In this document: positions 391-61,252 of the stretch, in pieces
Layout: each line of letters opens with the position of its first letter
How positions within the stretch are numbered: the stretch's first letter is position 1
Assembly (NCBI GenBank): GCA_020632095.1
Contig: JACKGF010000002.1
Coordinates: 80,502-144,501 of the forward strand
Reading direction: 5' to 3'
DNA: 64,000 bases
Origin: Candidatus Nomurabacteria bacterium
GTDB lineage: Bacteria > Patescibacteriota > Minisyncoccia > Phycocordibacterales > UBA918
Program-made: the position numbers and the translations under genes
The notes under the pieces: generated by a model
What the model saw: only the letters and a program-made list of their open reading frames with translations
What the model was told of the DNA's origin: nothing
Database searches by the model: none

Positions 391-890
391 GCGCCCCCTC
401 CAGGGCGCCCTTTTACTTTGTACAACGTAGAGTTCGGCTTGCGCGCTTTGCTCGTAGCCTCGAGCTAAGTATTTTTATACTTCACCACCGCACAAACCTA
501 GTTACAGATTCTCATATTGAGCCCAATAGTCAACAAGTTAGAATGTTGTTGTTTTTGGACTAGGTTGTGAATAACTTGTGAATAAGTACTGTATAACTAT
601 TGGGATAAGTTATGTATATATCGAGGGATAAATTATGTACAAACCTTAGTGATAAAAGTTGTAAAAACACCCTTTTAATCTCTTTTTTCTACTTAAATTA
701 ATTAGTACCTAACTCCTCCATTTTCACCAGATAAAATAAATCATACTCAATCTAAAAACACTAGCATTTTTTGACTTTTTTGCTATGATAGTGCGCACTT
801 ATCAGATAGTCTAAAAACTAGAGAGTTAAGTATGACCAGTCGCTAGAAATTCAATCAACCCATCACCCCAAAATTTCTACCGCACAAAAT

Positions 891-962
891 GGTCCCATCG
901 TCTAATGGTTAGGACGCCAGGTTTTCATCCTGGAAATCGGGGTTCGATTCCCCGTGGGATCA
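891..962 (+). tRNA. tRNA-Glu (anticodon TTC), no encoded CCA
   Basis: Cloverleaf: acceptor ggtccca/tgggatc, anticodon arm ccagg-ttttcat-cctgg, T-arm cgggg-ttcgatt-ccccg; followed by terminator hairpin 978-998 + T-run. Confidence 0.85.
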
Positions 963-977
963 CACGTAGAAAAATGA

Positions 978-1005
978 GCACACCTTTCCGAGGTGTGCCA
1001 TTTTT
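978..1005 (+). terminator. Rho-independent terminator after tRNA-Glu (gcacacct-ttccg-aggtgtgc + cattttt)
   Basis: 8-bp GC-rich stem, 5-nt loop, T-run. Confidence 0.6.
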
Positions 1006-1010
1006 CTTGT

Positions 1011-1060
1011 GTGATCCCACGAGTAAACCTGCTGGGAGCAGGTTTACGGGGGAATCGAAG
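1011..1060 (-). repeat. Inverted copy of tRNA-Glu T-arm/acceptor 3' end interrupted by 27-nt perfect palindrome (gtaaacctgct-ggg-agcaggtttac)
   Basis: gtgatcccac...gggggaatcgaag is the reverse complement of ttcgattccccgtgggatcac; palindromic insert sits between the T-stem and acceptor segments. Confidence 0.8.
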
Positions 1061-1362
1061 CTGTTGCCAGCCAGATTATGAACGGAGTGAAATAATCAGG
1101 CGACAACGGATACTGGTTGTGTAACAACCGATACTCCCCATGGGATCACAATATATTTTCTTAACAAAAACACCGCCAGGTGTTTTTGTTTTGGAAAATA
1201 ATTGTGATCCCACGAGTAACGTGCCCTGCGGCACGTTACGAGGGAATTGCACTCAAGAGTACTTCCGTTTTACGTTCCTTTCAGTCATTAAAAACTAGGG
1301 CGCCCGCCGGAGCGATGTGAGGAGCTTGCGACGAACGAGTGAGGTGTGTCCCGCGGCACTTG
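1061..1362 (+). repeat. Modules A (1061-1130), B (1131-1252: direct tRNA-end copy, terminator hairpin, inverted tRNA-end copy with variant palindromic insert) and C (1253-1362: inverted repeat ttcctttcagtca...tgactgaaaggaa); re-occur at 3385-3603 and 3806-3875
   Basis: Near-identical second copies downstream of the high-GC ORF; internal hairpins. Confidence 0.8.
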
Positions 1363-1760
1363 CTAGTCTGTGACTGAAAGGAAACGACCTAGAATTCAAG
1401 GAGTGAAACGACTATGAATACGGAAATGCCCTTGTGGTGAAAATAGCTTTGTGACCGTCAGGATCATTCCCTGTCAGAACTATCACCTATATGAACAAAC
1501 TGGATAACATTACAACACGAAAAAATTTTCCGGAGGACCGACCTCCGTAGTTTGGCTAGTCTGTGACTGAAAGGAAACGACCTAGAATTCAAGGAGTGAA
1601 ACGACTATGAATACGGAAATGCCCTTGTGGTGAAAATAGCTTTGTGACCGTCAGGATCATTCCCTGTCAGAACTATCACCTATATGAACAAACTGGATAA
1701 CATTACAACACGAAAAAATTTTCCGGGGGACTTTTCCGGAGGACCGACCTCCGTAGTTTC
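1363..1760 (+). repeat. Tandem duplication of a ~192-bp unit (1363-1554, 1555-1760; third copy 3604-3795); each unit has a strong SD (aaggag) + 8-codon mini-ORF MNTEMPLW + terminator hairpin (ccggagg-accga-cctccg + tagttt)
   Basis: Copies near-identical; copy 2 has a 13-bp internal duplication; mini-ORF ATG at 1414, 1607 and 3656. Confidence 0.85.
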
Positions 1761-1903
1761 TTCTGGAGGCTAGCGTACTCTTCGGGAGTGAGGCTATCAA
1801 TGTATCCACGGTTTTGTATTGAGTCGATTTTTACCAAGGCCCAGTAGTCTGTTAATTCGTGTGCGTGCACGACAAAATCTCTTAGAATTTTTTCATTTTT
1901 CAT
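1703..1903 (-). CDS. Hypothetical small protein (66 aa); 3' end lies in repeat unit, no clear SD
   Basis: ORF only; low-complexity-free sequence but no recognisable domain. Confidence 0.25.
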   Translation of the reverse strand: MKNEKILRDFVVHAHELTDYWALVKIDSIQNRGYIDSLTPEEYASLQKKLRRSVLRKSPPENFFVL

Positions 1904-2153
1904 ATTGTTTATTTTTTAATTGTTAGCGCTGACGCGCATGAGTAAAGTTTGCGAGAACTTGAAAGAATCCTACACCAAATCACCGCAGAAGAATATGACT
2001 AAACATAGAAGAATCACAAACGTGAAAAATGTGGTGTAGTTTGATTTTTTCTGCATTTCTAAGAGTTGCAAATCTTTTAAAACACCGTCGTTTGTGGCAT
2101 AGTGTCTTTTGGAACGCACATTGACGTATCCACCAACGCCTAAGGAGGCTCAA

Positions 2154-3185
2154 ATGACTGGTGCACTACTAAAAATGAACGCCTTCGTCCAGGTGGCGGA
2201 GGGTATGCATGTCTACTACGACTGCCCGATGATGTCCGGCGAAGATTTTCGGAGCGATCAGTTTTTCAAGGAAAACCGGGGTAAAACCGGCCTCGTGAAG
2301 GGCTTCCCTGAGAAGTTCGTCGGGCCGCTTGATTCCAAGGGCCGTCTGCCGGGTGTCTACATCAAACCCGGCTACATCCATGTGCAGTTTGAAGGCGAGG
2401 AAAAAGTTCACCAAGGACTCAACCTCCACTATTTCATTCTGCTCGACGTCGGCCAAACCGTCGTGCCCGAAGCGAGCCTCGAACACCAAAAGGTGCGCGA
2501 CTTGCCAGAGGCGATCGAGTTCTGGCCCGGTGATCAGGTCTGCAAAGTAAACGACCTTCTTCGGACGGTTCGTTTCGTCGAGGATGTCCGCATCGGAGAC
2601 AACGGCGCGCTGATTTACGTCCTCGCCGAAACTGCCGAAGCGAAACAGCAACGGCAGGATGAAAAGGAGGCGGAGATCGCTCGTCGGCGTGAAGAAGCCA
2701 AGAAGAGTGACGACCCGCTTGCGGGATTTCCACTCGGACTCGGTCTCATGGACCATCCGCGCACTGAATCGCGCAAGGCCAATGACCTCACTCTCGTGAC
2801 TCGGGGGAACGTCTATCACCTCTATCACGATCCTGCTCAACTCGCTTTTGCTTCTTCAGAACAGGAAGTGGGATTCTGGGCGAAGGACGGCATCTCGACG
2901 ACTGTCTATGGCGGCGGCAACCACATGCCTCGCTGGGAATGGCCGATCGAGAAAGCCAGGGAGATGGTCGAGAAGGGCGATGGCGACCTCGTGATTGCGT
3001 CCAAGCAATACGAGAATGTCATTGTCACTGGCCGTGGTGGCGACTTCAAGGTTCGCAAACTGCATTCCTGCTTCGCCCAGCATCGCGAGCGAGTGCGTGC
3101 ACTTTCGCTCAGCTTGGCCAAGCCTCCGGTCGAGGAAGACATTTCCTTCGGCAAGAGGGCCATGGCCCTGCTCGGCGACGACTGA
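2154..3185 (+). CDS. Hypothetical protein (~344 aa), high-GC (~57%) foreign gene; likely start at ATG 2154 preceded by aaggagg
   Basis: Long ORF with strong SD; GC far above window average (many antisense ORFs in the same span are GC artefacts); followed by GC-rich terminator 3209-3242. Confidence 0.7.
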   Translation: MTGALLKMNAFVQVAEGMHVYYDCPMMSGEDFRSDQFFKENRGKTGLVKGFPEKFVGPLDSKGRLPGVYIKPGYIHVQFEGEEKVHQGLNLHYFILLDVGQTVVPEASLEHQKVRDLPEAIEFWPGDQVCKVNDLLRTVRFVEDVRIGDNGALIYVLAETAEAKQQRQDEKEAEIARRREEAKKSDDPLAGFPLGLGLMDHPRTESRKANDLTLVTRGNVYHLYHDPAQLAFASSEQEVGFWAKDGISTTVYGGGNHMPRWEWPIEKAREMVEKGDGDLVIASKQYENVIVTGRGGDFKVRKLHSCFAQHRERVRALSLSLAKPPVEEDISFGKRAMALLGDD

Positions 3186-3206
3186 TGCCAATTGGAAAGT
3201 TCGACT

Positions 3207-3242
3207 CAGCGCGACCCCTCACCCGGGTCGCGCTTTTTCTTT
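3207..3242 (+). terminator. Rho-independent terminator (gcgcgaccc-ctcaccc-gggtcgcgc + tttttcttt)
   Basis: 9-bp GC stem plus T-run immediately after stop of 2154-3185. Confidence 0.7.
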
Positions 3243-3384
3243 GGTTACCAAGATATAAAAATCGTCAAAAAGTGTCACTTTTGTCACTTTTTGCTCCTCT
3301 CGAGAAGGGTCAAGACTGATTTAAACTGATTATTCACGAAAGCCTTACAGGGGAATGTATTATCATGGTTCCATCACGATTCGG

Positions 3385-3962
3385 CTCACAATATATTTTC
3401 TTAACAAAAACACCGCCAGGTGTTTTTGTTTTGGAAAATAATTGTGATCCCACGAGTAACGTGCCCTGCGGCACGTTACGAGGGAATCGCACCCCAAGAG
3501 TACTTCCGTTTTTACGTTCCTTTCAGTCATTAAAAACTAGGGCGCCCGCCGGAGCGATGTGAGGAGCTTGCGACGAACGAGTGAGGTGTGTCACGCGGCA
3601 CTTGCTAGTCTGTGACTGAAAGGAAACGACCTAGAATTCAAGGAGTGAAACGACTATGAATACGGAAATGCCCTTGTGGTGAAAATAGCTTTGTGACCGT
3701 CAGGATCATTCCCTGTCAGAACTATCACCTATATGAACAAACTGGATAACATTACAACACGAAAAAATTTTCCGGAGGACCGACCTCCGTAGTTTATATA
3801 GACGACTGTTGCCAGCTAGATTATGAACGGAGTGAAATAATCTGGCGACAACGGATACTGGTTGTGTAACAACCGAAATTCCCCGTGGGATCACAAATCA
3901 ACCGGCCGAAATGTGAATACATTTCGGCCGTTGCTGTTTGTAGGTCCCACGGGGAATCGAAG
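3385..3962 (+). repeat. Second copy of modules B-C-D-A plus direct tRNA-Glu 3'-end fragment (3876-3895), terminator-like hairpin (3907-3930) and inverted tRNA-end copy without insertion (3942-3962)
   Basis: Sequence identity to 1061-1760; aaattccccgtgggatcaca and its reverse complement aggtcccacggggaatcgaag. Confidence 0.8.
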
Positions 3963-4251
3963 AAAGCTTCTGGCGAAGCGGACGAGAAAGCCTTCTCGTC
4001 CGCACAGAAGCGGCGGGTGAAAAAGTCTGGGGGACTTTTGCAAGAGGTTGCCAGCTCGCAAGAGCGACAACCTGAACAGAATTCGTAAAATTCGCGTAAC
4101 ACAATATTTTGGAAGCTTTAGCTGAAGAAAATATTGATGTGAAGGTGACCGATTCCCTGTGGGATCACAAATTTTTAAGCTTGTTTTACAACACTATTTC
4201 AGACGACCTCACAAGGACATTGGACCCGTGATAAAATAATGGAATGATTAA

Positions 4252-4914
4252 TACGTTAATTTTGATATAAACGGAGTTCTCAACTCACCCACAGAAACAT
4301 CTAGTGAGAAAAATATCTTAAATTCATTTGGTGAAGTCATCTCAAGATTGCAAAATTCTTGTTTGGAAGCAGAAAAGAATAGGGGCGAGCTTTACGAGAT
4401 TTACCACAAATCTTCAGTAAATCTTATTTCTAGAGATGAGATGATAGACAAAATGTCTAACCTTCTATTGTGTAAACCACAAGAACTAGTTAAATGTGTC
4501 CACAATATTTACTCTGAAGGTTCAGTTGAAAACGTGAGTTTGTATGACTTTCTGGAGGCCATATCTAAGAGTAAACTTTTAAAGATTGGCTTACTATCAA
4601 CTCAATTTCCGTTATCAAAGGATATGCTGGTTCCCAAAAAGTATTACGATAACTTTGACTCACTTGGAATTTCTTGTGACAGCGAAATTCATCTCAAAAA
4701 ACCTGAGGGAGCTGTATTTGCAAAAATTATTAAAGAACTAGATACAAAACCAGAAAATGTGATTTTTGTTGATGACCAACAAAAATGCGTTGATGCTGGC
4801 AACCAGTTAGGGATAAATTCAGTTCAATTCATTAATAATAAACAATTAGCAAAAGACTTGGTTAGATTTAAAGTTCCTGGCGAAATAGGTCCATTCCTTC
4901 ATTTTCTTGACTAA
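4252..4914 (+). pseudogene. HAD-superfamily hydrolase-like gene lacking a canonical start; motif I remnant (FDINGV) lies in-frame upstream of first possible start (TTG 4348)
   Basis: C-terminal HAD motifs (KKPEG.., VIFVDDQQ) in the listed ORF 4348-4914; in-frame extension back to stop at 4249 contains YVNFDINGVL but no ATG/GTG/TTG start; flanked by att-like direct repeats 4151-4169 and 4927-4945. Confidence 0.5.
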
Positions 4915-5081
4915 GTGGCTCCAAATCATTCCCCGTGGGATCACAAATTTTTAAGCTATATACAACAACGTATTCTAGAGCACCCTAAGGGAGATTGGAA
5001 CCTTATAGAGGACCACATTGAACTATATTGGTTTTTCTGTATTATAAGAGTAGTAAAGAAATCACATAAGGAAACAAACAC

Positions 5082-5447
5082 ATGAAAGTATATTGTGCTT
5101 CAAAAAGCAAATACGGGCCACTTTGGAAAGAATGGGAAGATAATGGAGTCCAAGTAACTTCCAGCTGGTTGGAGAAATTTGACCAAGGTCGTCTCCCTGA
5201 CCAAACAGAACACTGGGACCAAATTCTTGAGGACATTCAAGGCTCAGATGCATTACTACTCTATTCTGAGGAAGGAGATGTTCAGAAAGGAGCATTGGCT
5301 GAATTCGGCATTGCGTTTGCTTTAGGAAAAAAGTTATTTTATGTTGGACCTACTGAAGGTTCTCTCACTGCAGTGGAGCACAAAAATGTTCAGCATTACC
5401 CTGACTTGAAAACATTCTTCAGCGAAGTATGTGGAATCGCCCAATAA
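5082..5447 (+). CDS. Nucleoside 2-deoxyribosyltransferase-like protein (121 aa)
   Basis: N-terminal KVYCAS and C-terminal ..GALAEFGIAFALGKKLFYVG resemble the 2-deoxyribosyltransferase fold signature (E-x-G-x-A-x-A-L-G-K); SD aagga upstream; terminator 5466-5518. Confidence 0.45.
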   Translation: MKVYCASKSKYGPLWKEWEDNGVQVTSSWLEKFDQGRLPDQTEHWDQILEDIQGSDALLLYSEEGDVQKGALAEFGIAFALGKKLFYVGPTEGSLTAVEHKNVQHYPDLKTFFSEVCGIAQ

Positions 5448-5465
5448 AATAACCTCAAGGGTCCA

Positions 5466-5518
5466 AGCCGTCCGCAAAAAGCCAGTCTATGGACTTGCTT
5501 TGCGGACGGCTTTTGTTT
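5466..5518 (+). terminator. Rho-independent terminator (agccgtccgcaaa...tttgcggacggct + tttgttt)
   Basis: 13-bp stem plus T-run. Confidence 0.6.
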
Positions 5519-5652
5519 ATACAATTCCACTCCTTCAGCTTCCCCACCTATTGGTTCCAAATCACACCCCTTAGGGTCACTAATTTTCGTGCTAGCACAA
5601 GAAGCATACAATATATTATCCCTGTCTCTGTATACCAAGCACCCACATAACC

Positions 5653-12779: not shown

Positions 12780-14040
12780 TTTTCAGTAATAATAGATTGA
12801 GTTTATCAGACTTAATCTATCATTATGAATCGAGGTGTCTACGTGTTTTCTCAAATTATGGAGTTTGTCGATGATTATGAGTTTAGAAAATGTGTGGAGA
12901 GATATAATGGTGAGTACCGCATTCGAAAATTATCTTGCCGACAACAATTCACAGCCATGATCTTCGGTCAGCTGGCATACCGGGAAAGTCTTCGCGATAT
13001 TATCACCTGTCTGGGTGCTCACGAAGAAAAGTTGTATCACCTTGGCTTTAGACAAAAAATCGCCCGCAACACCTTGGCCTCAGCCAACCAGAAAAGAGAC
13101 TGGAGAATCTACCGAGACCTAGCGATGGTGCTCATTGCCAGAGCCAGACCAATGGATCCAAAGTCAAAAGAAATCATTGAGCTTGATTTAGATGCGACAG
13201 TCTATCTGCTAGACTCAACGGTGATAGATTTGTGTTTAAGTCTGTTCGGCTGGGCCCGGTTCGATGCTCAACATTCTTCGATTAAGCTGAACATGCAACT
13301 TGATTTAAATGGCTCTATTCCTGCGTTTTTCACTATCACTGAAGGCAGAGTGAACGACGTGAATTTCCTAGATGAGATTACGTTCGAGCGTGGTGCGTAC
13401 TACGTCATGGACAAAGGGTATCTTGATTACGAACGTTGGCACAAGATACATCAAGCTGGAACATTCTTTGTTACGCGAGCTAGGCATAACATGTCGGTAC
13501 GGCGTTTGTATTCTAATGTGGTACGTAAAGAAACTGGTATTCTTTGTGATCAGATTGTTGTTCTGTCAGGGAAGAAAACCATGTGGCGTTATCCTGATAA
13601 GATGCGGAGGATAAAGTACCGCGATGCTGAAACCAATATTGCGTATGTCTTCGTTACTAATGATTTTAACAGTGATGCTTTGGTGATAGCGGTATTGTAT
13701 AAATACCGCTGGCAAGTCGAACTGTTTTTTAAATGGATTAAACAACATTTGAAGATTAAGTCTTTCTGGGGCACCAGTGCCAATGCTGTGAAGACGCAGA
13801 TTTGTCTGGCACTATGTGCTTATCTACTGATGGCTATCATTAAAAAACGGCTCCGGATTGAGCTTGATTTATACAAAATGTTACAGATTACGTCAGTGTC
13901 TCTATTAGACAAAAAGCCTTTAAAAACACTGTTTTCTAGGACTTTGGTACAATCTGATGTCAAGGGTGGGCAAGACAGCCTTGGTTTGCAATGGTTTTAA
14001 ACGGGACACTAGTGGGAGCAGTCTACATTTTCTTTATAAC
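12780..14040 (+). mobile_element. IS4-family insertion sequence (approximate ends)
   Basis: Contains transposase 12825-14000; ends not resolved. Confidence 0.5.
12825..14000 (+). CDS. IS4-family DDE transposase (DUF4372 N-terminal + DDE_Tnp_1)
   Basis: N-terminal MEFVDDYEFRK...QQFTAMIFGQL (DUF4372-like), DDE region with DKGYLDYERW and C-terminal YRWQVELFFKWIKQHL. Confidence 0.8.
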   Translation: MNRGVYVFSQIMEFVDDYEFRKCVERYNGEYRIRKLSCRQQFTAMIFGQLAYRESLRDIITCLGAHEEKLYHLGFRQKIARNTLASANQKRDWRIYRDLAMVLIARARPMDPKSKEIIELDLDATVYLLDSTVIDLCLSLFGWARFDAQHSSIKLNMQLDLNGSIPAFFTITEGRVNDVNFLDEITFERGAYYVMDKGYLDYERWHKIHQAGTFFVTRARHNMSVRRLYSNVVRKETGILCDQIVVLSGKKTMWRYPDKMRRIKYRDAETNIAYVFVTNDFNSDALVIAVLYKYRWQVELFFKWIKQHLKIKSFWGTSANAVKTQICLALCAYLLMAIIKKRLRIELDLYKMLQITSVSLLDKKPLKTLFSRTLVQSDVKGGQDSLGLQWF

Positions 14041-19289: not shown

Positions 19290-19450
19290 AAACGCTTTTT
19301 AGTAAGGTGCTACATTGACATTGTAGAGGTCACAGGCTAAATCAGTTTGGGAAACTGATTTAGGAGGTTGCCTAGTATTTTGCAAAAATACTGACAACCT
19401 GTACTGAACTCGTAGAGTTCAAGTCCTGTATCGCTCACAAAGTTTTTATT
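19290..19450 (+). repeat. Truncated tRNA-Val duplicate (anticodon arm to 3' end, no 5' half) carrying an ~80-nt structured insertion in the T-arm; 33-bp direct repeat with the intact tRNA 3' end
   Basis: gctacattgacattgtagaggtcacagg + [insert with hairpins aaatcagttt/aaactgattt and gtatttt/aaaatac] + gttcaagtcctgtatcgctcacaaagttttta. Confidence 0.7.
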
Positions 19451-47165: not shown

Positions 47166-47224
47166 ATAAATATCCCACTAAATAATACTTATATTCTAAC
47201 ACAAACAAAAATCACCCCAAGAGG

Positions 47225-47580
47225 TGATTTTTGCACACATAAGCCGGATTCTGTCGAAATTACTTTCGGATGACCATTTACCTAGGCTAAATATTGCTAT
47301 TTAACTCTTGCGGCTCTTCCCCTTGGCCGTGGATTTCAGGAGAAATCCACGGCCAAGGGGACGCGGCCTTGCACGCCAGTAAGGATTTAGCCGTTTCACC
47401 CACACTGTTACCAGTATGACTATTCCCAGAGGGAATTCTTTCGCTTTCGCTCGAGACGTCTCTGCTCGCACCTCGCACATTACTGTGGACGGGCGTTACC
47501 CGCTACCATACTCCATAAAATAAATCATGGACGTGTCCGGACTTTCCTCTTCAAATAAATGAAGCGGTCATCGTGTCCCC
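47225..47580 (-). ncRNA. rnpB: RNase P RNA (bacterial type A, reduced)
   Basis: Minus strand contains P4 gaggaaagtccgga, gggtaacgccc, ctggtaacagtg, gcaaggccgcg and 3' acagaatccggcttat, in the canonical order; followed by a terminator hairpin aaaatcacctcttggggtgatttt. Confidence 0.75.
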
Positions 47581-48056
47581 ACATTATGCAATATTTAGAA
47601 AAAATTGCAAATTTCTACGAAATTTTAAATGGGCTGTAATCAATACCTTCATCATAAACATCTATGCCTTCGGATCGCTTCAACTTAGCAACAATCCAAT
47701 AAGTAATCGGTGTAGCAATAACTTCATACCCAACCTTAAAAATATAGCTGGAAACAATAATAGTAACTAATGCACTAGCCGGAATAGTGCCTCCAAACGC
47801 AATTACAGCGAAAACGATCGTATCAACCCCCTCTCCCACAATTGTTGAACCAATCGTCCTCTTCCACAGAGCACTTCCTCTCATCTTTACTTTCATTTTA
47901 GAAAGCACATATGAATTGCATAACTCACCAACAAAAAACGCTAAAATGGACCCAGCTACAATTCTTGGCACAAATCCAAGAATAGACTCATAAGCTTCTT
48001 GTCCTTCCCAGAAACCAGCTGCTGGCAAATACTGCCACGAACATGTAGCCCTCCAG

Positions 48057-49004
48057 CTACCCCTCAAGTAGGACAGATTGCTCATAATAATACTCACTCG
48101 AAATCCTAAAATCAATACACTCTTTCGGTCGGTCATTCAAGAAGGCATGAATCTCATTCAATTCTTCTTGAGTAACAGACGCAATGTCTCTCCGCTTTGG
48201 AACAAAGCATCTAATCCAACGATTAGTATTCTCTACCAGTCCCTTCTCCCAAGAATGATAAGGGTGGCAGAAATAGATTGGAGCCTGTATGATTTGTTCT
48301 AGTTCCGTCCAGTGACGGAATGCAATGTCGTTGTCGGTGGTGATACTCTTGACTATAATATTGCTAAACATTTTAGAGAACGCTGCACTGATTGTGTGGC
48401 GTTTTCTATTGGGTAACTGACGTACCAAGCTGTATTTAGTTAAACGGTCAGTAGCCACTAGAAGTACGTATGGACTGTACTTAGAGACAATGAAGTCTAG
48501 TTCATAGTGACCTAGCTCATGGCTACCAAGAGGACGAATATCTATATATTTACGGCCATCATCAGCTGGTTTATGTGTGGTCCGTTTCGGACCACTTTTC
48601 TTTTTGTTCCAACGCCAGAATAGTCGATATTCCAGACCACGACTTTCTATGAACTTGTATATAGCTTTGGCGGAACAGGTAACACCGAGCTCTCGTTTGA
48701 GATGTCCACTGATTTGTTTAGGGGTCCACTTCTGCTCTAGTTTGTCTTCTACGAAGCTTACTAGGAAACTATCCATTGCCACCTTGAGACACTGACGTTT
48801 AGCGCGCCAACGACGTTGACTTACTTTTAGTTGGGCTTGCTTGGCGTCATAGACTCCATTAACCCTATTCTTCTTTAGTTCCTGACTGATGGTGTTGGGA
48901 CTACGTTTGAGGAAGATGGCTATTTCTCTGATCAAACTCCCTGCGTTCAATAACTTTTCAATTACGAAACGCTCCTCAAATTGTATGTGTCTGTATGTTT
49001 TCAT
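48057..49004 (-). CDS. IS30-family transposase
   Basis: N-terminal HTH (MKTYRHIQFEERFVIEKLL...), DDE core, 315 aa. Confidence 0.85.
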   Translation of the reverse strand: MKTYRHIQFEERFVIEKLLNAGSLIREIAIFLKRSPNTISQELKKNRVNGVYDAKQAQLKVSQRRWRAKRQCLKVAMDSFLVSFVEDKLEQKWTPKQISGHLKRELGVTCSAKAIYKFIESRGLEYRLFWRWNKKKSGPKRTTHKPADDGRKYIDIRPLGSHELGHYELDFIVSKYSPYVLLVATDRLTKYSLVRQLPNRKRHTISAAFSKMFSNIIVKSITTDNDIAFRHWTELEQIIQAPIYFCHPYHSWEKGLVENTNRWIRCFVPKRRDIASVTQEELNEIHAFLNDRPKECIDFRISSEYYYEQSVLLEG

Positions 49005-59689: not shown

Positions 59690-59842
59690 ACGTTTACATT
59701 ACGTCTTCCACTTCTTACAGAAGCTGTACACCTTGTCGCTACTTTGCTTCAAGTTTTCGCAAAGTAGCTGGCAAGGTCTTGCGTCAGTCTACCAGACTGA
59801 CGAAACTAAAAGCTCGTATTGGCTAATATTACTTTTGATTGA

Positions 59843-60559: not shown

Positions 60560-61130
60560 ATACAAGTCAAGCAAACACCAAAAATACCCTTTTATTAAGC
60601 CACAAAAAACACCAGACTCTGTCTGGTGATGGAGGTGGCTGGTCAGATGTTGTATTCTAATACAATGAGATTTCGTAAAAGCACTCACGCCTTATACAAA
60701 ACAGAATATCACGTAGTCTGGACACCTCGATATCACCGCAAAATCTTCGTCACAGGGGTTAAAGAATACGCTGACTCTCTATTTACCAATTTCCCCAACC
60801 TCCATCAAGATATCGAGGTAGTAAAGGTCAACGTCCGCCTAGACCATATACACATAATACTCGTCATACCACCAAGAATTGCAGTTGCCGAGGCCAATCA
60901 GTATTTAAAATCTCAAAGTGGCAAAAGACTTAAGGCAAAATTTGCTTTTCTTAACCAAGTATTCTGGGGTAGAACTGGTATCTGGTCACGCGGTTATTGT
61001 GTCTCTACAATTGGACTCAATGAAAAGCAAATTCTTGACTACGTAACCTACCAAGAAAAAGAGGATAAAGGGCAACTTCAATTCGATCTCGAATAAGGGG
61101 AAACCACCAGCTCTGCTGGTGGAGGGTTCA
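60560..61130 (+). mobile_element. IS200/IS605-family element (tnpA only; ends approximate)
   Basis: Contains Y1 HuH transposase. Confidence 0.5.
60626..61096 (+). CDS. tnpA: IS200/IS605-family transposase TnpA (Y1 HuH)
   Basis: RKSTHALYKTEYHVVWTPRYHRKIF, HuH motif HIHIIL, catalytic Tyr region RGYCVSTIG. Confidence 0.85.
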   Translation: MMEVAGQMLYSNTMRFRKSTHALYKTEYHVVWTPRYHRKIFVTGVKEYADSLFTNFPNLHQDIEVVKVNVRLDHIHIILVIPPRIAVAEANQYLKSQSGKRLKAKFAFLNQVFWGRTGIWSRGYCVSTIGLNEKQILDYVTYQEKEDKGQLQFDLE

Positions 61131-61252
61131 ATTTAAAAGTTATTCTACAAAATGGATATTTTGTAAGAAAAACTATTCTCGTGCGTCATAAGGAGTTGAG
61201 CAACAAAATCTTCAGGCTTTTAGCCGCAAACCAAATATAGGTAGGTTCTACA

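Follow-up and report, generated by a model that had tools for sequence, protein, structure and literature searches.

We analyzed a stretch of 64,000 nt of genomic DNA from a Candidatus Nomurabacteria bacterium (contig JACKGF010000002.1; hereafter the window), in which a tRNA-Glu(UUC) gene is followed by an array of partial copies of its own 3' end (Table 1). The terminal 21 nt of the gene (943-963, ttcgattccccgtgggatcac), designated D, are found in direct orientation with copies starting at 947, 1133, 3878, 4152, and 4928 as well as a variant at 5564 (repeat family D3). The same tRNA end is also present in inverted orientation, designated I, once as an unsplit copy (3942-3962, ggtcccacggggaatcgaag) and three times in a split form (1011-1059, 1204-1248, and 3444-3490), in which a 28-nt insert separates the complements of positions 954 and 953, corresponding to the boundary between the T-stem and the acceptor stem of the tRNA-Glu sequence. 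These repeats belong to a previously undescribed family of small structured elements, whose architecture, distribution, and possible mode of action are analyzed here.

The initial annotation of this region had reported inverted copies of the tRNA-Glu end that are split at the same position by palindromes with two different stem sequences, together with a fourth inverted copy lacking an insertion, and direct reading of the sequence bears this out. The copy at 1011-1059 reads gtgatcccac, insert, ggggaatcgaa, and the copies at 1204-1248 and 3444-3490 read gtgatcccac, insert, gggaatt/gggaatcg. The insert gagTAAACCTGCTgggAGCAGGTTTAcg at 1021-1048 has the stem ACCTGCT/AGCAGGT and the insert gagTAACGTGCCctgcGGCACGTTAcga at 1214-1241 and 3454-3481 the stem CGTGCC/GGCACG, both within the shared flanks GAG-TAA...TTA-CG. 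Two of the reported details need to be qualified. The supposed perfect palindrome of 27-28 nt is an insert of 28 nt with a palindromic core of only 24-25 nt, and its flanks GA(G)...(C)G are indeed conserved but not self-complementary. Likewise, all three reported hairpin copies are present, but the second and third lie within one 110-nt direct repeat (1143-1252 and 3383-3492, 98% identity; in practice part of a duplication of approximately 410 nt), and the window therefore provides two independent hairpins rather than three. The split inverted copies with their hairpins are confirmed as genuine and far beyond chance: allowing up to 1 mismatch, the window contains 8 occurrences of the 10-mer GTGGGATCAC, always within 954-4944, compared to 2.5 ± 1.7 in shuffled sequences, none of which (0 of 100) reached 8.

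A scan of metagenome contigs with the pattern GTGATCCCACGAG-N(10-34)-CGRGGGAAT revealed 13 homologous loci (individual loci are given below as L followed by a number). Species-representative genomes were scanned with a looser pattern, which left the hairpin flanks GAG/CG free and yielded 39 loci, 10 of them with the full context; the other 29 are chance matches, mostly inside genes. All 10 full-context entries are Patescibacteria (Saccharibacteria, Paceibacteria/Paceibacterota, Minisyncoccia, Parcubacteria, and one labelled "bacterium"), and for the 23 loci with a split inverted copy overall (13 from metagenomes and 10 from genomes), the organism is a member of the Patescibacteria wherever the record title names one. 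Together with the window, these loci contain 19 distinct inserts, always located between CCCAC and GGGAAT, with stems of 7-11 bp that comprise 185 Watson-Crick, 2 G.T, 2 A.C, and 1 other pair. GAG and CG border every true copy; the single degenerate one (L022, position 7284) reads AAG...CAT. The homologous loci were also checked for insertions at random positions and for unpaired substitutions, which the initial annotation had named as refuting its interpretation; instead, the 19 variants share the position, and their stems change by paired substitutions.

The insert hairpin, designated P2, is one arm of a multi-helix unit and not, as previously assumed, a separate palindrome inserted into tRNA-end copies. 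In nearly every locus, D follows the split inverted copy by approximately 75 nt, and the strongly folded unit that ends in this direct tRNA-end copy spans 127-176 nt (about 140-180 nt). A complete block consists of a palindromic, terminator-like spacer, the inverted tRNA end with P2, the hairpins P3 and P4 (the latter with a TGTAA loop), and the direct tRNA end. Across 17 distinct aligned units (126-141 nt), GTGATCCCAC is paired with GTGGGATCAC (P1) and GGGGAATCG with CGATTCCCC (P1b). P3 is a long hairpin with a loop that is often of the GAGCGNAGCGAA type, and it is followed by a conserved TAC(T/A)G and by P4, which has a 5-bp stem and a TGTAA loop that is invariant in the 17 units. Furthermore, an alternative "type B" interior shares the P1/P2/P1b frame; complete units of this type were found in L053 (433-597) and L028 (475-650), and it also occurs in the 286-nt repeats of the window.

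The proposed structure was tested with 46 pairs over the 17 aligned units. Paired cells amounted to 91%, compared to 74% in shuffles and 34-46% with the partners slid, and compensatory change was found at 23 pairs (9 of 11 in P2, 10 of 12 in P3, and 4 of 5 in P4). The observed values were matched by none of 500 shuffles on four of five measures and by 1 of 500 on the fifth. Covariation is absent from P1 and P1b, as their sequence is dictated by the tRNA. The fixed position, the paired substitutions in 19 variants, and compensatory changes far above the controls agree with the earlier proposal that the hairpin is a selected structure, and they support P2 as a nucleic acid structure under selection.

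The inverted copy has two possible partners, the downstream D, which closes the unit, and the upstream D, which is either the tRNA end or the end of the previous unit. In our model, it would represent the strand that pairs with the one or the other. The stretch between the upstream D and I always consists of an A-run, a GC hairpin, and a T-run that together form a palindrome resembling a bidirectional terminator, and the palindrome of spacer S1 extends the complementarity of D and I. When folded as DNA, the D-spacer-I segment at 940-1062 reaches a dG of -54.4 kcal/mol (z -14.5), and folding in both orientations, as had been suggested earlier, confirmed a very stable, branched hairpin on either strand. 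Within this fold, P2 forms the side arm of a three-way junction, and the D-S3-I0 segment (3874-3964) forms the same hairpin without the side arm.

A covariance model built from the 17 units identified further copies in the window, with the whole unit 1 (1011-1149) scoring 146 bits. The copy at 3808-3874 comprises P3-P4 alone, and a weak copy of the module lies inside the I0...D unit (4017-4102). A third module (19326-19434) is located directly behind tRNA-Val, where P2-P3-P4 sits within the T-loop of a partial direct tRNA-Val copy: the anticodon arm up to the 5' strand of the T-stem is followed by the module and then by the sequence from the T-loop to the 3' end and 11 nt of trailer, each part being repeated from the gene. 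Finally, a bare P2-P3-P4 is found on the minus strand at 59700-59790, in an intergenic position just upstream of msrA and in sense orientation. At 19326-19434, 59700-59790, and 4017-4102, P2 directly precedes P3 outside any inverted tRNA end. Thus, the conserved core is the three-hairpin module P2-P3-P4, and behind tRNA-Glu, P2 merely happens to be placed centrally in the inverted tRNA end. Alternatively, I may be regarded as supplying the 5' strand of a helix modelled on the acceptor and T stems of the tRNA in their stacked form, with P2 at the place of the D- and anticodon arms.

Table 1. Elements and associated features identified in the window (positions in nt; strand given where assigned).
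Feature	Positions	Strand	Description
tRNA-Glu(UUC)	891-963 (end at 962 or 963)	+	ARAGORN; Rfam tRNA 65.7 bits
Spacer S1	964-1010		A-run, GC hairpin, T-run palindrome; terminator-like on both strands; apex of D-S-I hairpin
Inverted tRNA end I1	1011-1059	+	gtgatcccac 1011-1020, P2 with flanks 1021-1048, ggggaatcgaa 1049-1059
P3	1061-1109	+	Long hairpin, base GTTGCC...GACAAC, loop GAACGGAGTGAA; 10/12 pairs compensatory in 17 homologues
P4	1115-1129	+	5-bp stem, invariant TGTAA loop, preceded by TAC(T/A)G; 4/5 pairs compensatory
Direct tRNA-end copy D1	1130-1149	+	gatactccccatgggatcac; closes unit 1 through pairing with I1
Spacer S2	1151-1203		Palindromic terminator-like hairpin (inverted repeat and fold)
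Inverted tRNA end I2	1204-1248	+	With second P2 version (CGTGCC/GGCACG)
Type B interior	1268-1790	+	286-nt repeat and overlapping partial copy, gtgtcccgcggcac ... gtgaccgtcaggatcattccc; terminal D cut off after attccctgt
Cargo region	1703-3185		66-aa open reading frame 1703-1903 (-) and G+C-rich 343-aa open reading frame 2154-3185 (+)
GTGTCAC repeats, then box C	3255-3390	+	ctctcgagaagggtc ... ggttccatcacgattcggctcaca; conserved right end of cargo-bearing element; box C end is a D variant without the central 6 nt
Second copy of S2, I2, and P2	3391-3490	+	110-nt repeat, 98%
Type B interior, then P3-P4-D	3510-3896	+	Interior 3510-3795, P3-P4-D 3806-3896; 3808-3874 scores 52.9 bits
S3, unsplit I0, hairpins, D	3897-4169	+	S3 3897-3941, I0 3942-3962, P2-like/P3/P4-like hairpins 4017-4102, D 4152-4169
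Two single-ORF cassettes	4171-5581	+	HAD hydrolase 4348-4914; 121-aa open reading frame 5082-5447; both close with a D-type repeat (4928-4945; variant 5564-5580) that is part of a 69-nt repeat
Related unit behind tRNA-Val	19307-19450	+	49.4 bits, E 2e-9
Stand-alone P2-P3-P4	59700-59790	-	Upstream of msrA, without tRNA-like flanks; 46.9 bits

Near-identical blocks were found in different genomic contexts. The tRNA, spacer, and unit of L013 and L018 are 99.2% identical in an alignment that begins at the first base of the tRNA and ends at the end of D, the rest of the compared stretches being unalignable. The block of spacer and I...D is 98.9% identical in L010, where it lies behind a non-tRNA sequence ending in ..TCTTCAC. 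Sequences preceding blocks further include tRNA-Glu, a conserved sequence termed box C (..GGCTCAC), another conserved element (..TCATCAC), and a D variant (..AGGGTCAC); each of these left junctions has CAC as its last bases, and the blocks themselves all finish with TCAC. Tandem units are present in L013, L010, and L022, truncated copies also occur, and one Patescibacteria tRNA-Glu (L089) has no unit behind it. Moreover, units can be split by 2.5 kb of cargo. At 1151-3896 of the window, the left part (S2, I, and type B interior) and the right part (P3-P4-D) are separated by cargo, with the left part duplicated around two open reading frames (ORFs), GTGTCAC repeats, and box C. The same layout is found in L091 with a different spacer, a variant unit, and a 343-aa ORF that is 91% identical. 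Public assemblies of this organism break within these repeats. The conserved element ending in ..TCATCAC (L049 1-283, L053 1-385, and L010 on the reverse strand) reads ..AATGCGTACGCAGAAGTA..CACCACGCGCYCCGCGCGTTGC..GGGTTCGAGC..TCATCAC; this element, which has no Rfam match, contains the GAGCGNAGCGA motif that is also present in P3 loops and type B interiors.

Elsewhere, the cargo neighbouring the units is of the defence or addiction type (reverse transcriptase, ParD antitoxin, methylase fragment, and ThiF-DUF6791 protein), and an SMC-like ATPase is also encoded near units. The 66-aa and 343-aa cargo ORFs of the window gave no Pfam or PHROG match. The latter (2154-3185) has a G+C content of 54%, compared to approximately 40%, and 24 homologue clusters, the sole named one of which is labelled Patescibacteria, and it appears to represent a family restricted to this group. 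It was considered as the recombinase of the element and rejected, as homologues occur elsewhere without the unit (e.g., in L089, between ftsZ and ftsA) and as database matches are lacking. Box C comprises a conserved 94-nt sequence (CTCTCGAGAAGGGTC...GGTTCCATCACGAYTCGGCTCAC) after GTGTCAC direct and palindromic repeats. It is also found in L006, L037, L040, L011/L015, L028, and L091, where it always precedes a spacer hairpin and a split inverted tRNA end. Since its sequence is conserved with little structure or covariation, box C was rejected as a structured RNA, and its conservation pattern is as would be expected of protein-binding DNA. No second inverted partners were found for the D variants (D2 and the box C end). 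The two same-strand cassettes at 4171-5581 each open with a AAATTTTTAAGCT-like sequence, and the 121-aa protein has a weak nucleoside 2-deoxyribosyltransferase match. In L053, the region behind the type B unit (600-1000) contains a palindromic terminator, a module copy in inverted orientation (768-888, minus strand), and rearranged fragments that resemble pieces of tRNA-Glu(CUC). Genes within 6 kb of this region include those for a reverse transcriptase and a ThiF-DUF6791 protein as well as a RAYT-like Y1 gene that is flanked by REP-like sequences of its own. In L011 (6000-6200) and L015, the unit is cut within P3 by a multi-copy short repeat (GCCTAGGCGGAGC / AAGCTTAGCCTAGGC).

We tentatively favor, with somewhat less than even confidence, the view that these units are a family of small, non-autonomous mobile elements of Patescibacteria that use a folded single strand, probably of DNA, as their recombination site, and we prefer this view to that of a tRNA-like RNA. 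Blocks would be placed directly after the ..TCAC of tRNA-Glu or of other sequences with the same end, where they would stack in tandem and carry cargo genes between their left and right parts. With one strand unpaired, the inverted copy would pair with the upstream tRNA end or with the downstream end of its own block, rebuilding a 19-bp duplex with the acceptor/T-arm end sequence of the tRNA gene, in which P2 would be the third arm of the junction. This branched fold may be recognized by a structure-specific recombinase or transposase acting on single-stranded DNA, with P2 possibly marking the strand or side. P2 is nearly pure Watson-Crick and has no excess of G.T pairs (2 G.T and 2 A.C), which is more in keeping with a DNA palindrome than with a typical RNA stem. 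The unit is also bounded by terminator-like hairpins, with no promoter evident and no conserved promoter-like element.

Precedents for such a site are known: folded attC sites are the substrates of integron integrases, and the attP of phage CTX is recognized in its folded form by XerCD. Like these, the units are sites of 60-180 nt with variable sequence and a conserved single-strand fold, in which inverted ends provide two paired boxes, one strand carries an asymmetry, and the distal structure varies. As with attC, sites separate small single-ORF cassettes of the same orientation in an array anchored at one chromosomal site, and as with the attP of CTX, folding restores a double-stranded copy of the chromosomal target. 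However, the attC-like hairpin put forward in the initial annotation was not substantiated. The 17 aligned units all have GTGATCCCAC/GTGGGATCAC at their ends instead of the R''/R' core sites (RYYYAAC/GTTRRRY), the asymmetry is a full hairpin arm of 9-11 bp instead of one or two extrahelical bases, and the anchor is a tRNA 3' end instead of attI or dif; there is neither a linked IntI or Xer gene nor an Rfam match of the attC type. An integron-like form of gene capture at tRNA-Glu in Patescibacteria, in which an enzyme reads a folded strand mimicking the acceptor/T-arm and P2 directs the strand or side of the cut, appears rather unlikely; cassettes and tiny non-coding elements would in this case be inserted at the last bases of the tRNA.

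Several observations weigh against a mobile element with a folded DNA site. The window and the arrays examined revealed neither an integrase or integron integrase nor a linked transposase. Approximately 17 window ORFs of at least 150 aa were scanned against Pfam and PHROGs and the others judged by eye; no tyrosine recombinase was recognized among the window ORFs of at least 150 aa, and none beside the arrays of other loci. The recombinases that the window does encode (IS200-like Y1, IS4-like DDE, and IS30-like) are distant, and the hairpins of the Y1 gene are unrelated. Neither an excised circle nor a clean filled/empty pair with identical flanks was seen. Since the CAC at the junctions pairs with the GTG of the inverted copy and equals the generic C72-A73-C74 of a tRNA, the target and the end of the element are indistinguishable. 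The near-identity across contigs could partly stem from related strains with rearranged flanks. Finally, all five module copies of the window are in sense orientation relative to the flanking transcription unit, on either DNA strand, and P3 contains 9 G.T pairs as opposed to 0 A.C, which would fit a role as RNA as well.

Such a role is the most serious alternative, although we consider it somewhat unlikely: the unit could be transcribed as a structured, tRNA-like non-coding RNA when transcription of the tRNA continues into it, could then be processed by tRNA enzymes, with predicted ends GUGAUCC.. and ..GGGAUCAC(CA), and could act as a mimic or decoy of tRNA-Glu or as a stabilizing 3' trailer. 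With GUGAUCCCAC as the 5' strand and GUGGGAUCAC as the 3' strand, the unit reproduces the acceptor stem of tRNA-Glu in Watson-Crick pairs, GGGG/CCCC is the counterpart of the T-stem, P2 takes the place of the D- and anticodon arms, and P3 and P4 fill the T-loop. The 3' strand runs unbroken through P1b and P1, resembling the coaxial stack of acceptor and T stems, with P2 exactly at the boundary, and the invariant UGUAA loop of P4 presumably fits the U-G-N-R-A form of the T-loop motif. An acceptor-like helix stacked on a T-stem-like helix and a possible T-loop-type pentaloop are likewise known from tRNA-like RNAs (tmRNA domain, YrlA, and viral structures). The bias of P3 towards G.U pairs (9, with 0 A.C), an RNA fold z of -6 to -7, the sense orientation of all copies to their neighbours, including the one upstream of msrA on the other strand, and the presence of the unit behind tRNA-Glu in both Saccharibacteria and Paceibacteria entries point in the same direction. 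However, a terminator-like hairpin and T-run lie between tRNA and unit, a conserved promoter-like element is lacking, P2 is almost devoid of G.U pairs, and both strands fold equally well. We also attempted to assign the strand from G.T versus A.C pairs and discarded this approach, as only P3 is biased (9:0, compared to 4:3 in P2) and the overall signal is weak. Unlike known tRNA-like RNAs, the unit has no equivalents of the anticodon and D arms, is apparently mobile and multi-copy, and forms a helix that extends through the discriminator base, with P1 pairing through this base and C74, which are normally free in a tRNA-like substrate. The unit is missing behind the tRNA-Glu of L089, and it occurs in multiple, tandem, or truncated copies or split by the 2.5-kb cargo. 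Finally, the unit matches no family of Rfam 15, including the tRNA, tmRNA, and Y RNA-like families: no unit in the window or in 12 loci matched at gathering score, and positions 850-4250 gave no relevant match at E <= 10, not even to the tRNA model.

Two further explanations rely on known types of mobile DNA, and we regard both as improbable, the first of them slightly more so. A derivative of IS200/IS605 akin to palindrome-associated transposable elements (PATE), or a repeat akin to repetitive extragenic palindromes (REP), could be mobilized in trans by a Y1 HUH transposase or RAYT 3' of TCAC. These groups share with the units a small size, hairpin-rich extragenic sequences located behind genes, no target duplication, junctions that may likewise be set by a fixed motif (here, TCAC at the junctions and at the block end), and a terminator-like hairpin at one end, and the left-end hairpin of the element recalls the one carried by the left end of IS200. 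In addition, I and D are both able to form a GATCCC/GGGATC stem with one bulged base, and Y1 transposase genes are present in the window (60626-61096) and in L053. However, each of these genes is flanked by hairpins that bear no relation to those of the unit (CACCAG..CTGGTG in the window; GGGTCAGGAGC repeats at the RAYT-like gene of L053), for which reason a RAYT/IS200 partner was rejected. The spacer hairpins differ wholly between copies, so that a sequence-reading TnpA could not bind them, and I and D form an inverted terminal homology, whereas the ends of IS200/IS605 are not inverted repeats. The previously suggested IS200/IS605-like hairpin is not borne out. The position of every junction at (T)CAC may reflect insertion 3' of a fixed motif, but may equally stem from the pairing of CAC with GTG in the inverted copy or from its identity with a generic tRNA end. 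The units could also be ordinary scars of integrase-driven islands in tRNA-Glu, with spacers that are plain terminators, hairpins that have no function, and inverted copies arising from snap-back or template-switch duplication around the terminator hairpin. Arrays of partial-tRNA repeats and cargo are produced by the repeated integration of tycheposons beside a tRNA (doi 10.1101/2020.12.28.424599), and the direct partial-tRNA repeats with cargo found here, i.e., the D copies at the five positions given above, resemble this classic footprint (doi 10.1101/2020.12.28.424599). As in tycheposons, tRNA 3'-end direct repeats lie downstream of an intact tRNA with cargo or defence genes between them, and newcomers are expected to push older elements outward (doi 10.1101/2020.12.28.424599). 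The unsplit D-S3-I0 segment (3874-3964), a perfect palindrome of the kind generated by template switching, also fits. Yet scars decay, whereas the pairing of P2, P3, and P4 has been kept, with 23 compensatory positions, across loci titled as different classes. P2 always sits at one base with GAG..CG flanks, the TGTAA loop is invariant, and the module recurs behind tRNA-Val and upstream of msrA. Tycheposons carry integrases, whereas neither an integrase nor a fragment of one was found in or near the arrays examined (window and flanks of 15 related loci). The smallest units described here measure approximately 180 bp, are non-coding, and each combine an inverted tRNA end that holds a covarying hairpin with additional covarying helices; a text search of the tycheposon paper found hairpins unmentioned, its lone "inverted repeat" being a reference title (doi 10.1101/2020.12.28.424599).

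Comparisons with other systems gave no closer match. Like miniature inverted-repeat transposable elements (MITEs; Correia/NEMIS, ERIC, and BOX), the units are small (127-176 bp), have inverted ends and interiors of modular build (types A and B), occur several times per genome, and may be co-transcribed with their neighbours. They differ in that the left inverted repeat of the unit is subterminal, approximately 50 nt inside the block behind the spacer hairpin, and in that the ends are a tRNA 3' end, with neither a target-site duplication nor a matching DDE transposase. A Prochlorococcus-type island was rejected based on the titles of the true matches and on the sole named homologue, all of which are Patescibacteria. 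A phage origin was likewise rejected, as three pattern scans of viral contigs gave no true split inverted end or type B core, and in a fourth, box C was matched by chance only. A retron or reverse transcriptase partner was dismissed, as only L053 among the examined loci has one, at a distance of 0.5 kb and on the opposite strand. Judged against the general properties of IS110, a bridge-RNA-like guide loop does not apply, since both halves of the inverted copy complement one strand as a continuous duplex and no DEDD recombinase was found. A tmRNA or tag reading frame in P3 was excluded because there is no conserved frame or stop. In the literature searched on Patescibacteria tRNA-like elements, integrase islands, and attC, we found no description of the element.

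Further features of the window include three copies of a 69-nt repeat (TACATTCACAATATGCCCTTCGGGCATTTGTTCACTGAATCAGAATTTGCCTAAGGCAAAACAAATTCT) upstream of tRNA-Glu (153-416), each with two small hairpins. A 20-nt piece within this region (242-261) recurs at 1271 and 3513, and fragments of the element are thus present on both sides of the tRNA gene. The window also contains three insertion sequences (Y1, 60560-61140; DDE, 12825-14000, an IS4-like transposase with DUF4372 and DDE_Tnp_1; and an IS30-like element, 48057-49004, minus strand) as well as a class A RNase P RNA (47224-47583, minus strand), whose score of 113.8 bits is barely over the Rfam threshold of 100 bits and may reflect a divergent lineage.

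The genomes of Patescibacteria are tiny and presumably take part in gene exchange, but to our knowledge, few of their mobile elements have been described. The elements analyzed here constitute a new, structured, and apparently mobile family that homes to the 3' end of tRNA-Glu in this group. The family is widespread, with entries from Saccharibacteria, Paceibacteria, Minisyncoccia, and Parcubacteria that originate from Antarctic lakes, sea water, and other sites, and it marks a hotspot behind tRNA-Glu that collects defence, addiction, and other accessory genes. With compensatory changes at 23 pairs, it is one of the better-supported unannotated structured elements that can be found by eye, and the covariance model can be used to annotate further copies and may help to explain assembly breaks at this locus. 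If the unit acts as a single-strand recombination site, the attC principle would gain a second, independent example that is anchored at a tRNA end, and this would point to an undiscovered recombinase; if it acts as an RNA, it would represent a new class of RNAs that mimic tRNA-Glu.

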